64,000 bases of DNA from Escherichia coli (GTDB taxonomy: Bacteria; Pseudomonadota; Gammaproteobacteria; Enterobacterales; Enterobacteriaceae): NCBI RefSeq assembly GCF_003018255.1, contig NZ_CP027440.1. One strand, 5' to 3'. Shown one piece after another: positions 2,485 to 64,000 of the stretch. Each line of letters starts with the position of its first letter. The stretch's first letter is position 1. A program made the position numbers and the translations under genes. Under the pieces are notes generated by a model. The model made no database searches and was not told where the DNA came from. It was given only the letters and a program-made list of their open reading frames with translations.

Positions 2485-3933
2485 ATGAAGTTTATCATTA
2501 AATTGTTCCCGGAAATCACCATCAAAAGCCAATCTGTGCGCTTGCGCTTTATAAAAATCCTTACCGGGAACATTCGTAACGTTTTAAAGCACTATGATGA
2601 GACGCTCGCTGTCGTCCGTCACTGGGATAACATCGAAGTTCGCGCAAAAGATGAAAACCAGCGTCTGGCTATTCGCGACGCCCTGACCCGTATTCCGGGT
2701 ATCCACCATATTCTCGAAGTCGAAGACGTGCCGTTTACCGACATGCACGATATTTTCGAGAAAGCGTTGGTTCAATATCGCGATCAGCTGGAAGGCAAAA
2801 CCTTCTGCGTACGCGTGAAGCGCCGCGGCAAACATGATTTTAGCTCGATTGATGTGGAACGTTACGTCGGCGGCGGTTTAAATCAGCATATTGAATCCGC
2901 GCGCGTGAAGCTGACCAATCCGGAAGTGACTGTCCATCTGGAAGTGGAAGACGATCGTCTGCTGCTGATTAAAGGCCGCTACGAAGGTATTGGCGGTTTC
3001 CCGATCGGCACCCAGGAAGATGTGTTGTCGCTCATTTCAGGTGGTTTCGACTCCGGCGTTTCCAGTTATATGTTGATGCGTCGCGGCTGCCGCGTGCATT
3101 ACTGCTTCTTTAACCTCGGCGGCGCGGCGCATGAAATTGGCGTGCGTCAGGTGGCGCATTATCTGTGGAACCGCTTTGGCAGCTCCCACCGCGTACGTTT
3201 TGTCGCTATTAATTTCGAACCGGTCGTCGGGGAAATTCTCGAGAAAATCGACGACGGTCAGATGGGCGTTATCCTCAAACGTATGATGGTGCGTGCCGCG
3301 TCCAAAGTGGCAGAACGTTACGGCGTACAGGCGCTGGTTACCGGTGAAGCGCTCGGCCAGGTGTCCAGCCAGACGCTGACCAACCTACGCCTGATTGATA
3401 ACGTCTCCGATACGCTGATCCTGCGTCCGCTGATCTCTTACGACAAAGAGCACATCATCAACCTGGCTCGCCAGATTGGCACCGAAGACTTTGCCCGCAC
3501 GATGCCGGAATATTGCGGCGTGATTTCCAAAAGCCCGACGGTGAAAGCGGTTAAATCGAAGATTGAAGCGGAAGAAGAGAAGTTCGACTTCAGCATTCTC
3601 GATAAAGTGGTGGAGGAAGCGAATAACGTTGATATCCGCGAAATCGCCCAGCAGACCGAGCAGGAAGTGGTGGAAGTGGAAACCGTCAATGGCTTCGGCC
3701 CGAACGACGTGATCCTCGATATCCGTTCTATCGATGAACAGGAAGATAAGCCACTGAAAGTCGAAGGGATTGATGTGGTTTCTCTGCCGTTCTATAAACT
3801 GAGCACCAAATTTGGCGATCTCGACCAGAGCAAAACCTGGCTGTTGTGGTGTGAGCGCGGGGTGATGAGCCGCCTGCAGGCGCTCTATCTGCGCGAGCAG
3901 GGCTTTAACAATGTGAAGGTGTATCGCCCGTAA
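2485..3933 (+). CDS. thiI: tRNA 4-thiouridine synthase ThiI
   Basis: Track ORF 482 aa; PP-loop SGGFDSGV and C-terminal rhodanese-like region; divergent from xseB. Confidence 0.95.
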
Positions 3934-3947
3934 TTTGTGGTTTTTAC

Positions 3948-3969
3948 GTCGCATCTGGTCAGATGCGAC
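3948..3969. repeat. REP-like palindrome (GTCGCATC-N6-GATGCGAC) between convergent thiI and yajL; possible bidirectional terminator
   Basis: Inverted repeat read directly from sequence immediately 3' of thiI stop. Confidence 0.5.
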
Positions 3970-3986
3970 GCTTACCGCATCCGACA

Positions 3987-19636: not shown

Positions 19637-19668
19637 TTAACCATTCCCATACAATTAGTTAACCAAAA

Positions 19669-19698
19669 AGGGGGGATTTTATCTCCCCTTTAATTTTT
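19669..19698 (+). terminator. probable terminator after clpX (GGGGA/TCCCC stem, U-rich tail)
   Basis: Hairpin and T-rich run read from sequence. Confidence 0.6.
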
Positions 19699-19713
19699 CC
19701 TCTATTCTCGGCG

Positions 19714-19740
19714 TTGAATGTGGGGGAAACATCCCCATAT
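19714..19740 (+). promoter_or_regulatory. sigma-32 heat-shock promoter of lon (TTGAAT-N13-CCCCATAT)
   Basis: Motifs read about 85-110 nt upstream of lon ATG. Confidence 0.7.
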
Positions 19741-19823
19741 ACTGACGTACATGTTAATAGATGGCGTGAAGCACAGTCGTGTCATCTGATTACCTGGCGG
19801 AAATTAAACTAAGAGAGAGCTCT

Positions 19824-36315: not shown

Positions 36316-36885
36316 ATGAAACTCGTGCACATGGCCAGTGGTTTAGCGGTTGCGATTGCGTTGGCGGCTTGCGCAGATAAAAGCGCGGATATTCAGACGC
36401 CAGCACCGGCTGCAAATACGTCTATTTCAGCAACACAACCTGCTATCCAGCAACCGAATGTCTCCGGTACCGTCTGGATCCGTCAGAAAGTCGCACTGCC
36501 GCCTGATGCTGTGCTGACCGTGACACTTTCTGACGCGTCGTTAGCCGATGCGCCGTCAAAAGTGCTGGCGCAGAAAGCGGTGCGTACCGAAGGTAAACAG
36601 TCACCATTCAGCTTTGTTCTGCCATTTAACCCGGCAGATGTTCAGCCGAACGCGCGTATTCTATTGAGTGCGGCGATTACCGTGAATGACAAACTGGTAT
36701 TTATTACCGATACCGTTCAGCCGGTGATCAATCAGGGCGGAACTAAAGCCGACCTGACATTGGTGCCGGTGCAGCAAACCGCCGTGCCGGTTCAGGCCAG
36801 CGGTGGCGCAACGGCTACCGTACCTTCGACTTCACCAACTCAGGTGAATCCGTCTTCGGCAGTTCCAGCTCCTACGCAATATTAA
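36316..36885 (+). CDS. ybaY: lipoprotein YbaY
   Basis: Track ORF 189 aa; signal peptide with lipobox LAAC; AAGGAGA Shine-Dalgarno 5 nt upstream. Confidence 0.88.
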   Translation: MKLVHMASGLAVAIALAACADKSADIQTPAPAANTSISATQPAIQQPNVSGTVWIRQKVALPPDAVLTVTLSDASLADAPSKVLAQKAVRTEGKQSPFSFVLPFNPADVQPNARILLSAAITVNDKLVFITDTVQPVINQGGTKADLTLVPVQQTAVPVQASGGATATVPSTSPTQVNPSSAVPAPTQY

Positions 36886-37381: not shown

Positions 37382-37495
37382 GGGGGCTCTGTTGGTTCTC
37401 CCGCAACGCTACTCTGTTTACCAGGTCAGGTCCGGAAGGAAGCAGCCAAGGCAGATGACGCGTGTGCCGGGATGTAGCTGGCAGGGCCCCCACCC
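37382..37495 (+). ncRNA. ffs: 4.5S RNA (signal recognition particle RNA), 114 nt
   Basis: Sequence GGGGGCUCUGUUGGUUCUCCCGCAACGC...GGCAGGGCCCCCACCC read directly; matches 4.5S RNA including the conserved GGAA tetraloop region. Confidence 0.95.
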
Positions 37496-37605: not shown

Positions 37606-37959
37606 ATGAAGTATGTTGATGGTTTTGTTGTTGCCGTTCCTGCCGATAAAAAGGATGCCTATCGGGAAATGGCCGCTAAGGCCGCGCCATTATTTAAAGA
37701 GTTCGGTGCGCTTCGTATTGTCGAATGCTGGGCCAGCGATGTACCGGATGGTAAAGTGACCGATTTTCGTATGGCGGTGAAAGCGGAAGAGAATGAAGAG
37801 GTTGTCTTTAGCTGGATTGAATACCCTTCAAAAGAGGTCCGCGACGCTGCTAATCAAAAGATGATGTCGGACCCACGGATGAAAGAGTTCGGCGAGTCCA
37901 TGCCGTTTGACGGCAAGCGAATGATCTATGGTGGATTCGAATCAATCATCGACGAGTAG
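37606..37959 (+). CDS. ybaA: DUF1428 family protein YbaA
   Basis: Track ORF 117 aa. Confidence 0.9.
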   Translation: MKYVDGFVVAVPADKKDAYREMAAKAAPLFKEFGALRIVECWASDVPDGKVTDFRMAVKAEENEEVVFSWIEYPSKEVRDAANQKMMSDPRMKEFGESMPFDGKRMIYGGFESIIDE

Positions 37960-53026: not shown

Positions 53027-54958
53027 ATGAGTTATCAGGTCTTAGCCCGAAAATGGCGCCCACAAACCTTTGCTGACGTCGTCGGCCAGGAACATGTGCT
53101 GACCGCACTGGCGAACGGCTTGTCGTTAGGGCGTATTCATCATGCTTATCTTTTTTCCGGCACCCGTGGCGTCGGAAAAACCTCTATCGCCCGACTGCTG
53201 GCGAAGGGGCTAAACTGCGAAACCGGCATTACCGCGACGCCGTGCGGCGTGTGCGATAACTGTCGTGAAATCGAGCAGGGGCGCTTTGTCGATCTGATTG
53301 AAATCGACGCCGCCTCGCGCACTAAAGTTGAAGACACTCGCGACCTGCTGGATAACGTCCAGTACGCTCCGGCGCGTGGTCGTTTCAAAGTTTATCTCAT
53401 CGACGAAGTGCATATGCTGTCGCGTCACAGCTTTAACGCACTGTTAAAAACCCTTGAAGAGCCGCCAGAGCACGTTAAGTTTTTGCTGGCGACGACCGAT
53501 CCGCAGAAATTGCCGGTGACGATTTTGTCACGCTGTCTGCAATTTCATCTCAAGGCGCTGGATGTCGAGCAAATTCGCCATCAGCTTGAGCACATCCTCA
53601 ACGAAGAACATATCGCTCACGAGCCGCGGGCGCTGCAATTGTTGGCACGCGCCGCTGAAGGCAGCCTGCGAGATGCCTTAAGTCTGACCGACCAGGCGAT
53701 TGCCAGCGGTGACGGCCAGGTTTCAACCCAGGCGGTCAGTGCGATGCTGGGTACGCTTGACGACGATCAGGCGTTATCGCTGGTTGAAGCGATGGTCGAG
53801 GCCAACGGCGAGCGCGTAATGGCGCTGATTAATGAAGCTGCTGCCCGTGGTATCGAGTGGGAAGCGTTGCTGGTGGAAATGCTCGGTCTGTTGCATCGTA
53901 TTGCGATGGTACAACTTTCGCCTGCTGCTCTTGGCAACGACATGGCCGCCATTGAGCTGCGGATGCGTGAACTGGCGCGCACCATACCGCCGACGGATAT
54001 TCAGCTTTACTATCAGACGCTGTTGATTGGTCGCAAAGAATTACCGTATGCGCCAGACCGCCGTATGGGTGTTGAGATGACGCTGCTGCGCGCGCTGGCG
54101 TTCCATCCGCGTATGCCGCTGCCTGAGCCAGAAGTGCCACGCCAGTCCTTTGCGCCCGTCGCGCCAACGGCAGTAATGACGCCAACACAGGTGCCGCCGC
54201 AACCGCAATCAGCGCCGCAGCAGGCACCGACTGTACCGCTCCCGGAAACCACCAGCCAGGTGCTGGCGGCGCGCCAGCAGTTGCAGCGCGTGCAGGGAGC
54301 AACCAAAGCAAAAAAGAGTGAACCGGCAGCCGCTACCCGCGCGCGGCCGGTGAATAACGCTGCGCTGGAAAGACTGGCTTCGGTCACCGATCGTGTTCAG
54401 GCGCGCCCGGTGCCATCGGCGCTGGAAAAAGCGCCAGCTAAAAAAGAAGCGTATCGCTGGAAGGCGACCACTCCAGTGATGCAGCAAAAAGAAGTGGTCG
54501 CCACGCCGAAGGCGCTGAAAAAAGCGCTGGAACATGAAAAAACGCCGGAACTGGCGGCGAAGCTGGCGGCAGAAGCCATTGAGCGCGACCCGTGGGCGGC
54601 TCAGGTGAGTCAACTTTCGCTACCAAAACTGGTCGAACAGGTGGCGTTAAATGCCTGGAAAGAGGAGAACGGCAACACGGTGTGTCTGCATTTGCGCTCC
54701 TCTCAGCGTCATCTGAATAACAGTGGCGCACAGCAAAAACTGGCTGAAGCGTTGAGCACGTTAAAAGGTTCAACGGTTGAACTGACTATCGTTGAAGATG
54801 ATAATCCCGCGGTGCGTACGCCGCTGGAATGGCGTCAGGCGATATACGAAGAAAAACTTGCGCAGGCGCGCGAGTCCATTATTGCGGATAATAATATTCA
54901 GACCCTGCGTCGGTTCTTCGATGCGGAGCTGGATGAAGAAAGTATCCGCCCCATTTGA
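53027..54958 (+). CDS. dnaX: DNA polymerase III subunit tau (full-length product)
   Basis: Track ORF 643 aa; Walker A GTRGVGKTS; Zn module CGVCDNC. Confidence 0.97.
   Translation: MSYQVLARKWRPQTFADVVGQEHVLTALANGLSLGRIHHAYLFSGTRGVGKTSIARLLAKGLNCETGITATPCGVCDNCREIEQGRFVDLIEIDAASRTKVEDTRDLLDNVQYAPARGRFKVYLIDEVHMLSRHSFNALLKTLEEPPEHVKFLLATTDPQKLPVTILSRCLQFHLKALDVEQIRHQLEHILNEEHIAHEPRALQLLARAAEGSLRDALSLTDQAIASGDGQVSTQAVSAMLGTLDDDQALSLVEAMVEANGERVMALINEAAARGIEWEALLVEMLGLLHRIAMVQLSPAALGNDMAAIELRMRELARTIPPTDIQLYYQTLLIGRKELPYAPDRRMGVEMTLLRALAFHPRMPLPEPEVPRQSFAPVAPTAVMTPTQVPPQPQSAPQQAPTVPLPETTSQVLAARQQLQRVQGATKAKKSEPAAATRARPVNNAALERLASVTDRVQARPVPSALEKAPAKKEAYRWKATTPVMQQKEVVATPKALKKALEHEKTPELAAKLAAEAIERDPWAAQVSQLSLPKLVEQVALNAWKEENGNTVCLHLRSSQRHLNNSGAQQKLAEALSTLKGSTVELTIVEDDNPAVRTPLEWRQAIYEEKLAQARESIIADNNIQTLRRFFDAELDEESIRPI
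54294..54350 (+). other. dnaX: dnaX programmed -1 ribosomal frameshift cassette producing gamma: SD-like AGGGAG (54294-54299), slippery A_AAA_AAG (54310-54316), -1 frame stop TGA (54319-54321), downstream stem-loop (about 54323-54350)
   Basis: All elements read in the dnaX frame (AAA=Lys429, AAG=Lys430); a -1 shift yields ...K-K-E-stop, a 431-aa gamma. Confidence 0.9.
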
Positions 54959-57972: not shown

Positions 57973-58037
57973 CTTCATCTGCACTTTCCGCAAATTATCT
58001 TGCCATTAACCGTTTCAGCCTCAGGTGCCTTTCTTGA

Positions 58038-58754
<717 letters not shown>

Positions 58755-58885
58755 TCAAGCCGCAGCAGATCTGCTTTCGGGCAGGTCTGCTCATCCTCCT
58801 CAGGCAATACCTCTCACAGCAATTAGTTCTTCTTCTTCACTTTTCCGCTACAATTATCAACAAGTTGAATCGATAAGAGGCGGTA

Positions 58886-59848
58886 ATGCGTCAGACTAAA
58901 ACCGGTATCCTGCTGGCAAACCTGGGGACGCCCGATGCCCCCACACCTGAAGCGGTAAAACGCTATCTGAAACAATTTTTAAGCGACAGACGTGTGGTTG
59001 ATACCTCACGGTTGTTATGGTGGCCATTGCTACGCGGCGTGATTTTGCCGCTGCGCTCGCCGCGTGTGGCGAAGCTGTATGCCTCTGTCTGGATGGAAGG
59101 TGGCTCGCCGCTGATGGTTTACAGCCGCCAGCAACAGCAGGCGCTGGCACAACGTTTACCGGAGACGCCCGTAGCGCTGGGAATGAGCTACGGCTCGCCA
59201 TCACTGGAAAGCGCCGTAGATGAACTACTGGCAGAGCATGTAGATCATATTGTGGTGCTGCCGCTTTATCCGCAATTCTCCTGTTCAACGGTCGGTGCGG
59301 TATGGGATGAACTGGCACGCATTCTGGCGCGCAAACGTAGCATTCCGGGGATATCGTTTATACGTGATTACGCCGATAACCACGATTACATTAATGCACT
59401 GGCGAACAGCGTACGCGCTTCTTTTGCCAAACATGGCGAACCGGATCTGCTGCTGCTCTCTTATCATGGCATTCCCCAGCGTTATGCAGATGAAGGCGAT
59501 GATTACCCGCAACGTTGTCGCACAACGACTCGCGAACTGGCTTCCGCACTGGGGATGGCACCGGAAAAAGTGATGATGACCTTTCAGTCGCGCTTTGGGC
59601 GGGAACCCTGGCTGATGCCTTATACCGACGAAACGCTGAAAATGCTCGGAGAAAAAGGTGTAGGTCATATTCAGGTGATGTGCCCGGGCTTTGCTGCGGA
59701 TTGTCTGGAGACGCTGGAAGAGATTGCCGAGCAAAACCGTGAGGTCTTCCTCGGTGCGGGCGGGAAAAAATACGAATATATTCCGGCGCTTAATGCCACG
59801 CCGGAACATATTGAAATGATGGCTAATCTTGTTGCCGCGTATCGCTAA
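58886..59848 (+). CDS. hemH: ferrochelatase
   Basis: Track ORF 320 aa. Confidence 0.96.
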
Positions 59849-60804
59849 AGCTGAGCGGTAAAGAATTGAGCGCCGTCGCGAAGAGCCTCGTCGGCGGTTT
59901 TCATCATCCGTGAATAATGCAAAAAGGCGTGCAGCGTGCCTGGGTAGAGTTTGAACTCACAGGGCTGCTGATGCGCCGCTAACGTCTGGTAAAGCAGACG
60001 GCTGTCATCCAGCAGCGGATCGAACTCCGCCCCGGCAATAAAACAGGGCGGAACTTCGCGAGTGAGATCATTATTAAACAGGCAGTAATACGGCGACTCG
60101 CGGTCCGCGTCGTTACTTAAATACGCCTCTTCATACATCTGTAAATCCTGTTGCGTTAAGCCATCCCAGACACCGCCCAACAGACGACGAGTCACGGAAT
60201 CCCGTAATCCGTAAAGCCCATACCACAGCAAAACGCCCGCAACTTTACCGCAATCGATCTGTTTATCACGCAACCACAACGCACTGGCGAGCGCCAGCAT
60301 GGCACCTGCGGAATCACCGGCAAAGCCAATGCGGGACATATTGATTTGATAATCTTCCGCCTGCTGGTGGAAATAACAACAGGCAGCCACAATTTCCTCT
60401 ATCGCTTGCGGAAAACACGCTTCAGGTGAAAGGGTGTAATCAATGCCAATCACCGTACATTGGCTGTAGCTTGCCAGCAGGCGCATGATGCGATCGTGGG
60501 TATCAAGATTGCCGAGAATAAAACCGCCGCCATGCAAATAAAATAGCGTCGCCGGGCTATCTGGCTGCGGACAAAAGAGACGTGTTTCCACCTGCCCATA
60601 TTTTGTTGGAACCATGTAAGCTCTGGTTGCCATTTCTGGAGCGCCCGCATTCCAGAATCGGCGCTCAAGCGTGTAATGCTGTCGTTGCTCAGCAATCGTT
60701 CCCGTTGCGGGCCAGGGCGGTAAATCCGGCTGAAGAGTATTCACAACGGTCTTCATTTCAGCAGAAATAAGGTCCAGAACGGGTAATTTGTTTTCCGGCT
60801 TCAT
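59845..60804 (-). CDS. aes: acetyl esterase (alpha/beta hydrolase, HSL family)
   Basis: Track ORF 319 aa; HGGG oxyanion motif and GDSAG nucleophile motif. Confidence 0.95.
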
Positions 60805-60955
60805 GCAAAAACTCCTTTCAAATTACGTCATTGTAAGGAACCACTGCCATGAAAATGCGATCCCGCCTGCTGATATTGAAACTGGCTGCGTCTCGCGCGC
60901 TCCCGTCAGATTGTGTTAACATTCGCCGCTCAGTTAACCACCCGTAAAAACAACC

Positions 60956-62260
60956 ATGAAATTTCCCGGTAAACGTAAATCCAAACATTACTTCCCCGTA
61001 AATGCACGCGATCCGCTGCTTCAGCAATTCCAGCCAGAAAACGAAACCAGCGCTGCCTGGGTAGTGGGTATCGATCAAACGCTGGTCGATATTGAAGCGA
61101 AAGTGGATGATGAATTCATTGAGCGTTATGGATTAAGCGCCGGGCATTCACTGGTGATTGAGGATGACGTTGCCGAAGCGCTTTATCAGGAACTAAAACA
61201 GAAAAACCTGATTACCCATCAGTTTGCGGGTGGCACCATTGGTAACACCATGCACAACTACTCGGTGCTCGCGGACGACCGTTCGGTGCTGCTGGGCGTC
61301 ATGTGCAGCAATATTGAAATTGGCAGCTATGCCTATCGTTACCTGTGTAACACCTCCAGCCGTACCGATCTTAACTATCTACAAGGCGTGGATGGCCCGA
61401 TTGGTCGTTGCTTTACGCTGATTGGCGAGTCCGGGGAACGTACCTTTGCTATCAGCCCTGGCCACATGAACCAGCTGCGGGCTGAAAGTATTCCGGAAGA
61501 TGTGATTGCCGGAGCCTCGGCACTGGTTCTCACCTCTTATCTGGTGCGTTGCAAGCCGGGTGAACCCATGCCGGAAGCAACCATGAAAGCTATTGAGTAC
61601 GCGAAGAAATATAACGTACCGGTGGTGCTGACGCTGGGCACCAAGTTTGTCATTGCCGAGAATCCGCAGTGGTGGCAGCAATTCCTCAAAGACCACGTCT
61701 CTATCCTTGCGATGAACGAAGATGAAGCCGAAGCGTTGACCGGAGAAAGCGATCCGTTGTTGGCATCTGACAAGGCGCTGGACTGGGTTGATCTGGTGCT
61801 GTGTACCGCAGGGCCAATCGGCTTGTATATGGCGGGCTTTACCGAAGACGAAGCGAAACGTAAAACCCAGCATCCGCTGCTGCCGGGTGCTATAGCGGAA
61901 TTTAACCAGTATGAGTTTAGCCGCGCCATGCGCCACAAGGATTGCCAGAATCCGCTGCGTGTCTATTCGCACATTGCGCCGTACATGGGCGGGCCGGAAA
62001 AAATCATGAACACTAATGGAGCAGGGGATGGCGCACTGGCAGCGTTGCTGCATGACATTACCGCCAACAGCTACCACCGTAGCAACGTACCAAACTCCAG
62101 CAAACATAAATTCACCTGGTTAACTTATTCATCGTTAGCGCAGGTGTGTAAATATGCTAACCGTGTGAGCTATCAGGTACTGAACCAGCATTCACCTCGT
62201 TTAACGCGCGGCTTGCCGGAGCGTGAAGACAGCCTGGAAGAGTCTTACTGGGATCGTTAA
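60956..62260 (+). CDS. gsk: inosine-guanosine kinase
   Basis: Track ORF 434 aa, PfkB-family sugar kinase fold. Confidence 0.95.
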   Translation: MKFPGKRKSKHYFPVNARDPLLQQFQPENETSAAWVVGIDQTLVDIEAKVDDEFIERYGLSAGHSLVIEDDVAEALYQELKQKNLITHQFAGGTIGNTMHNYSVLADDRSVLLGVMCSNIEIGSYAYRYLCNTSSRTDLNYLQGVDGPIGRCFTLIGESGERTFAISPGHMNQLRAESIPEDVIAGASALVLTSYLVRCKPGEPMPEATMKAIEYAKKYNVPVVLTLGTKFVIAENPQWWQQFLKDHVSILAMNEDEAEALTGESDPLLASDKALDWVDLVLCTAGPIGLYMAGFTEDEAKRKTQHPLLPGAIAEFNQYEFSRAMRHKDCQNPLRVYSHIAPYMGGPEKIMNTNGAGDGALAALLHDITANSYHRSNVPNSSKHKFTWLTYSSLAQVCKYANRVSYQVLNQHSPRLTRGLPEREDSLEESYWDR

Positions 62261-62292
62261 GTTATCGACCAGACCGGACGACGATGGCATCC

Positions 62293-62329
62293 GTAGGCCG
62301 GATAAGATGCGTCAGCATCGCATCCGGCA
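62293..62329. repeat. REP element (GTAGGCCGGATAAGATGCGTCAGCATCGCATCCGGCA)
   Basis: REP-family palindromic sequence read between convergent gsk and ybaL. Confidence 0.75.
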
Positions 62330-62343
62330 ATGGAATCAATGTT

Positions 62344-64000
62344 TTACCCCGTCACCACCTCACCCGCCGGTGGCGTTTCCAGCAGTTCCAGCATAGTACG
62401 AGCAATTTCACGCTCACCCATCACTACCTGATTCGCACCACGTTCGGTGATATACGCCACTTCATCGTCATAATGGGCGCGGGCAATAATCTCAATATCC
62501 GGATTTTTCGCGCGGGCAGATGCCACAATCTCGCCCGCTTCATAACCGTTGGGAATCGTCAGGATCAGCCATTTTGCACATTCCAGATGCGCCAGTTGCA
62601 TAATTTCTTCGTTCGCCGCATTGCCCAATACTGCGCGGACCCCGCGCTCTCGCAGTTCATCAACACGGGTTCGTGACGTCTCAATCACCACCAGCGGAAT
62701 ATCAGAGGCGAGCAATTTCTCCCCCAGCAGGCTGCCTACACGACCGTAACCTACCAGTAGCGCATGGTTGCAAATATCCACTGGGATCTGCTTCTCTTCT
62801 TCGATAGCCTCTTCCAGCGTCTGCTCTTCCAGCGTTTCGGTCTTCGCCAGATATTTCTCCAGCAGCGCAAACAGGACCGGGTTGAGCATAATCGACAAAA
62901 TCGCCCCTGCCAGTACCAGGTTCTGCCCGGCTTGCGGCAATAGATCCAGCGCCATGCCCAGTCCCGCCAGGATAAACGCGAACTCACCAATTTGCGCCAG
63001 GCTGGCGGCGATAGTTAATGCCGTACGTTGGGAGTGACCAAACAGTCGCACCAGGAAAAACGCGGCTAACGACTTACCAAACAGAATAATCGCCAGCGTC
63101 GCCAGCACTGCCAGCGGTTGCTGAATCAGAATTAACGGATCAAACAACATCCCGACGGAGACAAAAAACAGCACCGCAAACGCGTCGCGCAATGGCAGCG
63201 TATCGTGGGCGGCACGGTGACTCAGTTCAGACTCGTTCAGTACCATCCCGGCAAAGAACGCACCGAGTGCAAAGGAGACATCAAACAGCTCCACCGCACC
63301 AAAGGCAATCCCTAACGCCAGTGCCAGCACCGACAGGGTAAACAGCTCACGGGAACCGGTTGCTGCGCTACGTGCCATAATCCACGGCACCAGACGGCGA
63401 CCTACCAGCATCATAATGGCGATAAATGCGATCACCTTGCCGATGGTGATCCCCATATCGACAGCAAGAGTGGCAAAGCCCACATCGCCTTGTTCCATCA
63501 TTCCTGCCACTGCGGGCAGCAACACCAGCGTCAGAACCATGACCAGGTCTTCCACAATCAACCAACCGATGGCGATTTGCCCACGCTGACTGTCAATTAA
63601 TTGCCGTTCTTCAAGTGCGCGCAGTAACACCACGGTACTGGCGGTGGAAAGACATAAACCGAACACGATACCGGTCATTAACGACCAACCCAGCACGGCG
63701 GAGAGCGCCATACCCAGCAGCGTAGCCACGGCTATCTGGGCGATCGCGCCGGGAATGGCGATGGCCTTTACCGCCATCAAATCCTTGAGCGAAAAGTGCA
63801 AACCGACGCCAAACATCAACAGAATGACGCCCAGTTCAGCCAGTTCCGGCGCAAGCTTGGTATCGGCAACAAAGCCCGGAGTGAATGGTCCTGCCAGCAC
63901 ACCCGCTAACAGATATCCCACCAGAGGAGAAATACGTAGTTTATTGGCCAGCATGCCGAGGATAAAGGCGAGCACAAGGCCGCCAACAATGGTGGTGATA
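62344..64000 (-). CDS. ybaL: CPA2-family cation:proton antiporter YbaL, 3' portion (N-terminus lies beyond window end)
   Basis: Track ORF 62344..63975; minus-strand frame stays open to nt 64000 (reads ...ITTIVGG upstream of the track Met); C-terminal TrkA-N/Rossmann region present. Confidence 0.9.
   Translation of the reverse strand, partial: ITTIVGGLVLAFILGMLANKLRISPLVGYLLAGVLAGPFTPGFVADTKLAPELAELGVILLMFGVGLHFSLKDLMAVKAIAIPGAIAQIAVATLLGMALSAVLGWSLMTGIVFGLCLSTASTVVLLRALEERQLIDSQRGQIAIGWLIVEDLVMVLTLVLLPAVAGMMEQGDVGFATLAVDMGITIGKVIAFIAIMMLVGRRLVPWIMARSAATGSRELFTLSVLALALGIAFGAVELFDVSFALGAFFAGMVLNESELSHRAAHDTLPLRDAFAVLFFVSVGMLFDPLILIQQPLAVLATLAIILFGKSLAAFFLVRLFGHSQRTALTIAASLAQIGEFAFILAGLGMALDLLPQAGQNLVLAGAILSIMLNPVLFALLEKYLAKTETLEEQTLEEAIEEEKQIPVDICNHALLVGYGRVGSLLGEKLLASDIPLVVIETSRTRVDELRERGVRAVLGNAANEEIMQLAHLECAKWLILTIPNGYEAGEIVASARAKNPDIEIIARAHYDDEVAYITERGANQVVMGEREIARTMLELLETPPAGEVVTG

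Follow-up and report, generated by a model that had tools for sequence, protein, structure and literature searches.

Convergent hemH and aes of Escherichia coli overlap by a CTAA tetranucleotide, and each transcript probably ends inside the partner gene

Introduction

Convergent genes that overlap at their 3' ends form a described class in Escherichia coli. Lillo and Krakauer (2007; PMC2174442) counted 58 convergent overlaps in this species, and CTAA, TTAA, CTAG or TTAG is the tetramer typically seen in the overlaps that measure 4 bp. When genes overlap convergently, a Rho-independent terminator has no other place than the coding sequence (CDS) of the partner, and 19 of the 58 E. coli overlaps have such a predicted terminator for one member of the pair (PMC2174442).

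Other descriptions start from the transcripts. In an excludon, by definition, interference or RNase III makes the expression of the two genes mutually exclusive. The ExcludonFinder study (Sanmartin et al. 2025, NAR; PMC12288877) lists 165 convergent excludons in strain MG1655, seen in no fewer than 50% of the 58 RNA-seq samples of that strain, and 146 of the 165 have TransTermHP terminators inside the transcription unit of the neighbour. Many bidirectional terminators of convergent pairs in E. coli are neither canonical intrinsic nor Rho-dependent terminators (bioRxiv 10.1101/2022.10.23.513370), and Rho-dependent 3' ends that are trimmed to a stem-loop have been described as well (Dar & Sorek 2018, PMC6061677; Adams et al. 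2021, PMC7815308).

Here we compare with these systems the E. coli genes hemH (ferrochelatase) and aes (acetyl esterase), for which an original prediction had held that the two stop codons overlap, that no intergenic space is left for terminators, and that the transcript of each gene must extend into the other, with antisense interference or termination inside the partner as the consequence. The overlap itself is already known: it stands in the reference annotation, its class was described in 2007, and the pair was catalogued in 2025.

Materials and methods

The window is the whole stretch of 64,000 nucleotides of E. coli DNA that was analysed, and coordinates are window coordinates unless stated otherwise; an MG1655 coordinate is the window coordinate plus 439169. 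The terminator scan (58000-62400) called for at least 5 T in 8 bases, with the first of these bases within 2 nt of the stem. A scan of a genome collection with Aes gave only 8 close loci, and the set was widened by protein searches and exact-sequence look-ups to 19 sequences from 10 genera, 15 with aes or an aes pseudogene beside hemH and 4 without aes.

Results

The original prediction placed the two stops correctly: on re-reading the sequence, hemH ends with TAA at 59846-59848, and CTA at 59845-59847, read on the - strand, is the TAG of aes. The + strand around 59834-59854 reads GCC GCG TAT CGC TAA AGC TGA. The coding sequences overlap by 4 nt and the stop codons have 2 nt in common, the TA at 59846-59847, which leaves no intergenic room, as had been claimed (Table 1). 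The identities of both genes are firm. The hemH product matches the ferrochelatase model TIGR00109 over its full length (residues 1-319, E 2e-134), the aes product likewise matches the acetyl esterase model NF007547 (residues 1-319, E 5e-189), and the crystal structure 4KRX of E. coli Aes has the same 319 residues, 1-319, through the C-terminus. The RefSeq annotation of MG1655 has the identical overlap (hemH 498055..499017, aes 499014..499973), and the 2.1-kb hemH/aes locus is present in 5424 of 5426 complete E. coli genomes.

Table 1. Features at the hemH/aes junction, in window coordinates.
Feature	Position	Strand	Details	Basis
hemH (ferrochelatase) CDS	58886..59848	+	320 aa; stop TAA 59846-59848	ORF list, TIGR00109, RefSeq
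aes (acetyl esterase) CDS	59845..60804	-	319 aa; stop TAG	ORF list, NF007547, 4KRX
CTAA tetranucleotide common to both CDSs	59845..59848	no strand		sequence read; tetramer class in PMC2174442
Stem-loop, predicted aes intrinsic terminator	59775..59812	-	15 bp, 8-nt loop; hemH codons 297-309	
Tail CGUAUUUUUU after the aes stem	59765..59774	-	U6 at 59770-59765, opposite the hemH Lys-Lys codons AAA AAA	
Weak hairpin followed by GGUUUUC, candidate leaky terminator	59867..59903	+	19 nt past the hemH stop; -17.6 kcal/mol, z -1.9	
Stem-loop UCCGCCC...GGGCGGA (60026-60052) with 3' terminus peak (60054-60063)	60026..60063	+		fold; PMC10687069 (rows examined)
C-rich, G-poor tract, Rho-loading-like	60089..60288	+	C/G ratio 1.7-2.5; holds the Rho peak at 60163	

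How unusual is such a junction? A stop codon that is preceded by a pyrimidine gives a stop codon on the opposite strand since TA is self-complementary, and aes has its in-frame TAG because the reverse complement of the C TAA end of hemH is in phase with the aes frame. The MG1655 equivalent of the window holds 9 convergent pairs, and hemH/aes is the sole pair that overlaps; in the remaining 8, spacers of 30-211 nt separate the genes. Statistically the arrangement is unremarkable, and it has the form expected of a convergent overlap. Two of the spaced pairs in the window, ybaY/ybaZ (36782-36812, 30-nt spacer) and ybaA/pdeB (37856-37897, 41-nt spacer), are also in the MG1655 excludome list. A scan of the whole window against Rfam gave no match at the hemH/aes junction, and a sigma-70 promoter scan of 58000-62400 gave no match. 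Elsewhere in the window, Rfam matches at the gathering threshold were the sraA sRNA (19657-19752, -), the 4.5S SRP RNA (ffs; 37390-37486, +) and the dnaX programmed frameshift element (54291-54355, +), all of which are known E. coli features.

Six genera (Escherichia, Salmonella, Citrobacter, Pseudocitrobacter, Trabulsiella and Shimwellia) have aes abutting hemH and convergent to it, their genes being arranged as ybaL, gsk, aes, hemH, adk, htpG, and HemH has 320 aa in all of them except Shimwellia (323 aa). What is conserved among them is the tight abutment and not the shared stop, for the junction spans everything from a 2-nt spacer to a 26-nt overlap. The overlap measures 4 nt in Salmonella, with TTAA as the tetramer and an Aes of 323 aa, and likewise 4 nt in E. 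coli, E. whittamii and C. sedlakii; it is 15 nt in Pseudocitrobacter, 23 nt in Shimwellia and 26 nt in E. marmotae. Spacers of 0, 1 and 2 nt are found in a Citrobacter MAG, Trabulsiella and C. amalonaticus, respectively. A 13-nt deletion near the 3' end of aes is common to E. marmotae and E. albertii NBRC 107761. In E. marmotae (locus L010, 3444-3469) it shifts the frame, and the resulting Aes of 322 aa ends only after 26 nt of hemH. The aes of NBRC 107761, the type strain of E. albertii (locus L009, 2974-3970), is split into two open reading frames (2974-3675 and 3632-3970) and is probably a pseudogene.

Klebsiella, Enterobacter, Kosakonia and Kluyvera are without aes, and gsk follows hemH on the same strand after about 62 nt; aes is found elsewhere in the genome in [Enterobacter] lignolyticus, Edwardsiella and Proteus. 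The hemH-gsk spacer of the four aes-less genera (loci L018-L021, 3464-3526) holds a conserved GC-rich inverted repeat around the motif TGTGCTAC(C/T)AT, which aligns with the E. coli sequence upstream of gsk, GATTGTGTTAACATT (window 60900-60955). This element may be a hemH terminator or a promoter or leader element of gsk, and the motif also marks the point at which aes was inserted or deleted. In Proteus hauseri (CP026364.1, locus L016, 3466-3469), aes, at a different locus, again has a 4-nt convergent overlap, TTAA, with a NUDIX/NrtR-like gene, which makes this junction a second, independent case of stop-sharing geometry for aes.

Since there is no intergenic DNA between hemH and aes, any terminator of either gene must lie in the CDS of the partner. 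For aes, the top match of the terminator scan was on the - strand within hemH, at 59812..59775, and has the arrangement AAUAUGUUCCGGCGU-GGCAUUAA-GCGCCGGAAUAUAUU followed by CGUAUUUUUU. The hairpin starts 33 nt after the aes stop, hairpin and U-tract together occupy 33-80 nt past the stop, and the tail lies opposite hemH codons 293-296. In the aes sense the hairpin has a folding energy of -22.9 kcal/mol (z -4.9; none of 200 shuffles reached this stability) with 6 G-C pairs. On the hemH-sense strand it is weaker (-15.9 kcal/mol, z -2.7) because 2-3 G-U pairs turn into A-C mismatches. The tail passes the scan rule, with a U-tract that is not fully canonical in that 4 nt separate the extended stem from the U6 run; in Pseudocitrobacter the U-tract after the hairpin is poor or degraded.

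The hairpin coincides with the most synonymously conserved 13-codon window of hemH among 7 taxa from 5 genera. Invariant codons make up 60-67% of the hairpin window versus 18.6% of hemH as a whole, and the top windows all overlap the hairpin. Across 13 sequences in which aes, or the E. albertii aes pseudogene, abuts hemH, 96.9% of the stem cells are paired, and the variation in the stem consists solely of changes from G-U to A-U or from U-G to C-G, which preserve pairing. A covariation test on these 13 sequences found no two-sided compensatory changes, so that the support for the hairpin is of conservation and of presence and absence, and not of covariation. The energy of the hairpin is -17.6 to -22.7 kcal/mol in 14 of the 15 sequences with aes abutting hemH, the exception being Shimwellia (-5.6 kcal/mol, hairpin absent), and between -5.6 and -7.3 kcal/mol for Klebsiella, Enterobacter, Kosakonia and Kluyvera. 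The hairpin is intact in five genera with aes abutting hemH and destroyed, partly by synonymous changes, in the four aes-less genera (Fisher test at the genus level, p about 0.02, uncorrected for phylogeny, with few and related taxa). From its stability and these comparisons we infer that the hairpin is probably the intrinsic terminator of aes, with a predicted 3' UTR of about 80 nt that would be fully antisense to the 3' end of hemH. The link between a terminator-like hairpin within hemH codons and the presence of aes is the only new element here.

Several further observations concern this region. The hairpin is still intact in E. albertii NBRC 107761 despite its split aes. In Shimwellia blattae (locus L017, 3441-3466) the sole terminator-like site, GCGCG-ACGG-CGCGC followed by TTTTTC, is inside aes, upstream of the aes stop. 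Directly downstream of the E. coli hairpin on the - strand lies a C-rich, G-poor tract (window 59645-59764, C/G 1.8-2.2), which could provide back-up termination by Rho for aes transcription that reads on inside hemH.

The original prediction had named the mapping of 3' ends for both genes as a check, and published tables answer it for hemH, whose end lies inside aes in the rows examined, and, in the parts examined, list none for aes near the hairpin. Neither the Term-seq tables of PMC7815308 nor the rows examined of PMC10687069 give an aes-sense 3' end near MG1655 498934-498940, or any - strand 3' end at MG1655 4988xx-4990xx. Low expression of aes is a possible reason for the lack of a mapped aes 3' end.

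For hemH, the LB sheet of Supplementary Data 3 of PMC10687069 (TRS analysis of RNAtag-seq) has, in the rows examined, an entry for a 3' terminus on the + strand that covers 499223-499232 (dominant position 499229), has a signal of 0.92 and is annotated as antisense to aes. The flanking 52-mer in that entry matches window 60010-60061 exactly, which puts the 3' end at window 60060, 212 nt past the hemH stop and 8 nt after a stem-loop that has no U-tract. The DirectRNA-seq data of Adams et al. 2021 (PMC7815308, Supplementary file 2), obtained in the presence and absence of bicyclomycin, give a region of Rho termination at 499332 on the + strand, antisense to aes, with a Rho score of 4.07 (p 6e-10); its peak corresponds to window 60163, about 315 nt past the hemH stop, and the region is coarse, being based on 800-nt windows and with upstream coverage also raised by bicyclomycin. 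The hemH transcript thus has the traits of a Rho-terminated one: read-through goes up on Rho inhibition, as published, and the RNA after 59848 is untranslated, C-rich and G-poor. The mapped 3' end, as entered in the rows examined, is upstream of the C-rich tract at 60089-60288, and it probably arose by exonucleolytic trimming to the stem-loop.

The hairpin just past the hemH stop (59867-59903) was also considered as the main hemH terminator and was rejected. It is weak and not significant (the surrounding 118 nt have z +0.4), its conservation does not reach beyond Escherichia, as Citrobacter shows, and neither PMC7815308 nor the examined rows of PMC10687069 report a 3' end at this site.

At the other end of hemH, a Term-seq 3' end of Adams et al. 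lies at window 58770 (MG1655 497939, +) in the adk-hemH spacer, 116 nt upstream of the hemH start, and a second Rho region is located at the start itself (window 58891, MG1655 498060, +; score 4.02, p 1e-17). These data suggest Rho-controlled read-through from adk into hemH.

Discussion

What ends the two transcripts when no DNA is left between the genes? We consider it likely that the whole explanation is an ordinary tail-to-tail overlap of the 4-bp CTAA type in which each transcript ends inside the partner gene. The expectation of termination within the partner is supported on the hemH side by the published 3' end in the rows examined and by the Rho region, and on the aes side by a terminator-like hairpin in hemH that is kept with convergent aes and lost without it.

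In the mechanism that we propose, aes sits in opposite orientation between hemH and gsk and adjoins hemH without a spacer. A polymerase transcribing aes would pass the stop codon and, about 33 nt further on, make the 15-bp hairpin and the CGUAUUUUUU tail, both written on the strand opposite hemH codons 293-309, where it probably terminates as at an intrinsic terminator. On the other strand, ribosomes would leave at the hemH stop while the polymerase continues and makes untranslated RNA that is antisense to aes. Rho may load on this C-rich RNA and stop the polymerase in or beyond the tract about 240-440 nt downstream, and the hemH RNA would then be trimmed back to the stem-loop, giving the stable 3' end 212 nt past the stop. 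The hemH and aes mRNAs would as a result carry complementary 3' regions of about 300 nt (about 59765-60060).

One alternative is that the overlap has been selected for regulation and works as a functional convergent excludon, in which head-on polymerase collisions, or RNase III acting on the duplex of about 300 bp, make the transcription of one gene lower the expression of the other; OxyR-driven induction of hemH, for example, might silence aes. The pair is indeed among the convergent excludons of MG1655 and shares their detection in at least 50% of the 58 RNA-seq samples (PMC12288877), the 3' regions are complementary over about 300 nt, and in six genera the genes still abut tail to tail with at most 2 nt of spacer. 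Overlap of the hemH and aes transcripts, the property that places a pair among the excludons, is apparent from the geometry, the excludome listing and the published 3' end in the rows examined. However, two expressed genes with overlapping CDSs acquire this property almost automatically. The junction drifts between a 2-nt spacer and a 26-nt overlap, as expected of neutral movement of stop codons, no functional link is known between ferrochelatase and acetyl esterase, four genera do not have aes beside hemH, and three genera have aes elsewhere. A literature search on hemH, aes and gsk found no papers, and no reciprocal expression data for hemH and aes. On these grounds a selected regulatory role is unlikely. 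Antisense interference between hemH and aes is possible. There is a slim chance that the hemH hairpin, under purifying selection at synonymous sites, and the antisense overlap of about 300 nt together form a real regulatory node; if so, induction of hemH (e.g., by OxyR under oxidative stress) would repress aes, or the reverse, via polymerase collision or RNase III.

A second alternative, which we hold to be about as doubtful as a selected excludon, is that the hairpin has nothing to do with aes termination and reflects codon preference, hemH mRNA structure or a palindromic DNA site for a protein, with aes transcripts ending by Rho or by decay further into hemH. All codons of the stem (CCG, GCG, GAA, CAT, TAT and ATT) are the ones that E. 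coli uses most for the amino acids concerned. The C-rich tract downstream on the - strand (59764-59645), the absence of the hairpin from Shimwellia, and the fact that the published tables, in the parts examined, map no aes 3' end to the U-tract are also in keeping with this alternative. Against it, Enterobacter and Kosakonia encode the residues YIPA...PEHI with other codons that break the stem, and since the residues are kept where the stem is not, the HemH protein does not require the hairpin. Moreover, folding energy separates the taxa with aes from those without it cleanly, Shimwellia apart, the G-U/A-U and U-G/C-G exchanges keep pairing in the aes-sense RNA only, and the U-run is on the aes-sense side only.

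It is also conceivable that converging polymerases collide at an overlapping bidirectional terminator for which the hemH hairpin serves as a two-way pause site. In the model reportedly due to Ju et al. 2019 and Wang et al., polymerase collisions drive termination at such overlapping terminators. Many sites of this kind are found between convergent pairs of E. coli, and the hairpin does fold on the + strand too. On that strand, however, it lies inside translated hemH, where ribosomes should unwind it, and both the stronger fold and the U-tract belong to the aes-sense side. The hemH-sense 3' end at 60060, from the rows examined, is 250-285 nt beyond the hairpin, and not at a position coincident with it, and hemH-sense read-through is bicyclomycin-sensitive and hence Rho-dependent. 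With the 3' ends so far apart and read-through sensitive to Rho inhibition, the model fits poorly, and we regard it as quite improbable.

That the overlap is an annotation artefact, with one protein really ending earlier, has next to no chance of being true, since both reading frames run uninterrupted to their stops and align end to end with curated family models, a stop position cannot be mis-called as a start can, the Aes structure reaches residue 319, and 5423 genomes have the region, and we found no evidence in favour of it.

Although an ordinary CTAA overlap with termination inside each partner matters little in itself, the locus has modest added value as a natural experiment, in which a terminator-like hairpin embedded in hemH is kept where aes abuts (Shimwellia excepted) and decays, partly by synonymous changes, where aes is missing. 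The transcription signal of a neighbour can, in this manner, constrain the synonymous sites of a housekeeping gene. As a practical warning, synonymous recoding of the hemH 3' end could alter the expression of aes.

The locus can be set beside four described systems. Relative to intrinsic terminators that are embedded in the CDS of a convergent neighbour, the candidate aes terminator is similar in its GC-cored 15-bp stem, its U-rich tail and its position past the stop of its own gene. It differs in that its U6 run is 4 nt from the stem, in that the tables examined map no 3' end to it, and in that the element is also constrained by coding for HemH residues 293-309.

Compared with Rho-dependent ends that are trimmed to a stem-loop (PMC6061677, PMC7815308), hemH is alike in its bicyclomycin-sensitive read-through, in a stable 3' end 8 nt after a stem-loop devoid of a U-tract, and in the C-rich tract downstream. 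Unlike those ends, its termination zone is wholly antisense within the CDS of another gene, and its trimming is proposed by analogy with them.

Among the convergent excludons of PMC12288877, hemH-aes is listed by name, its transcript 3' ends overlap and at least one terminator is placed inside the unit of the neighbour, whereas an excludon is defined by mutually exclusive expression via interference or RNase III and the pair was listed from RNA-seq coverage. The closest counterpart is the group of 4-bp YTAR overlaps (PMC2174442). The 3' ends of hemH and aes overlap on opposite strands by exactly 4 nt, CTAA, with the TA in both stop codons and the partner as the place for any terminator, and the pair resembles the group throughout, as a plain example of it.
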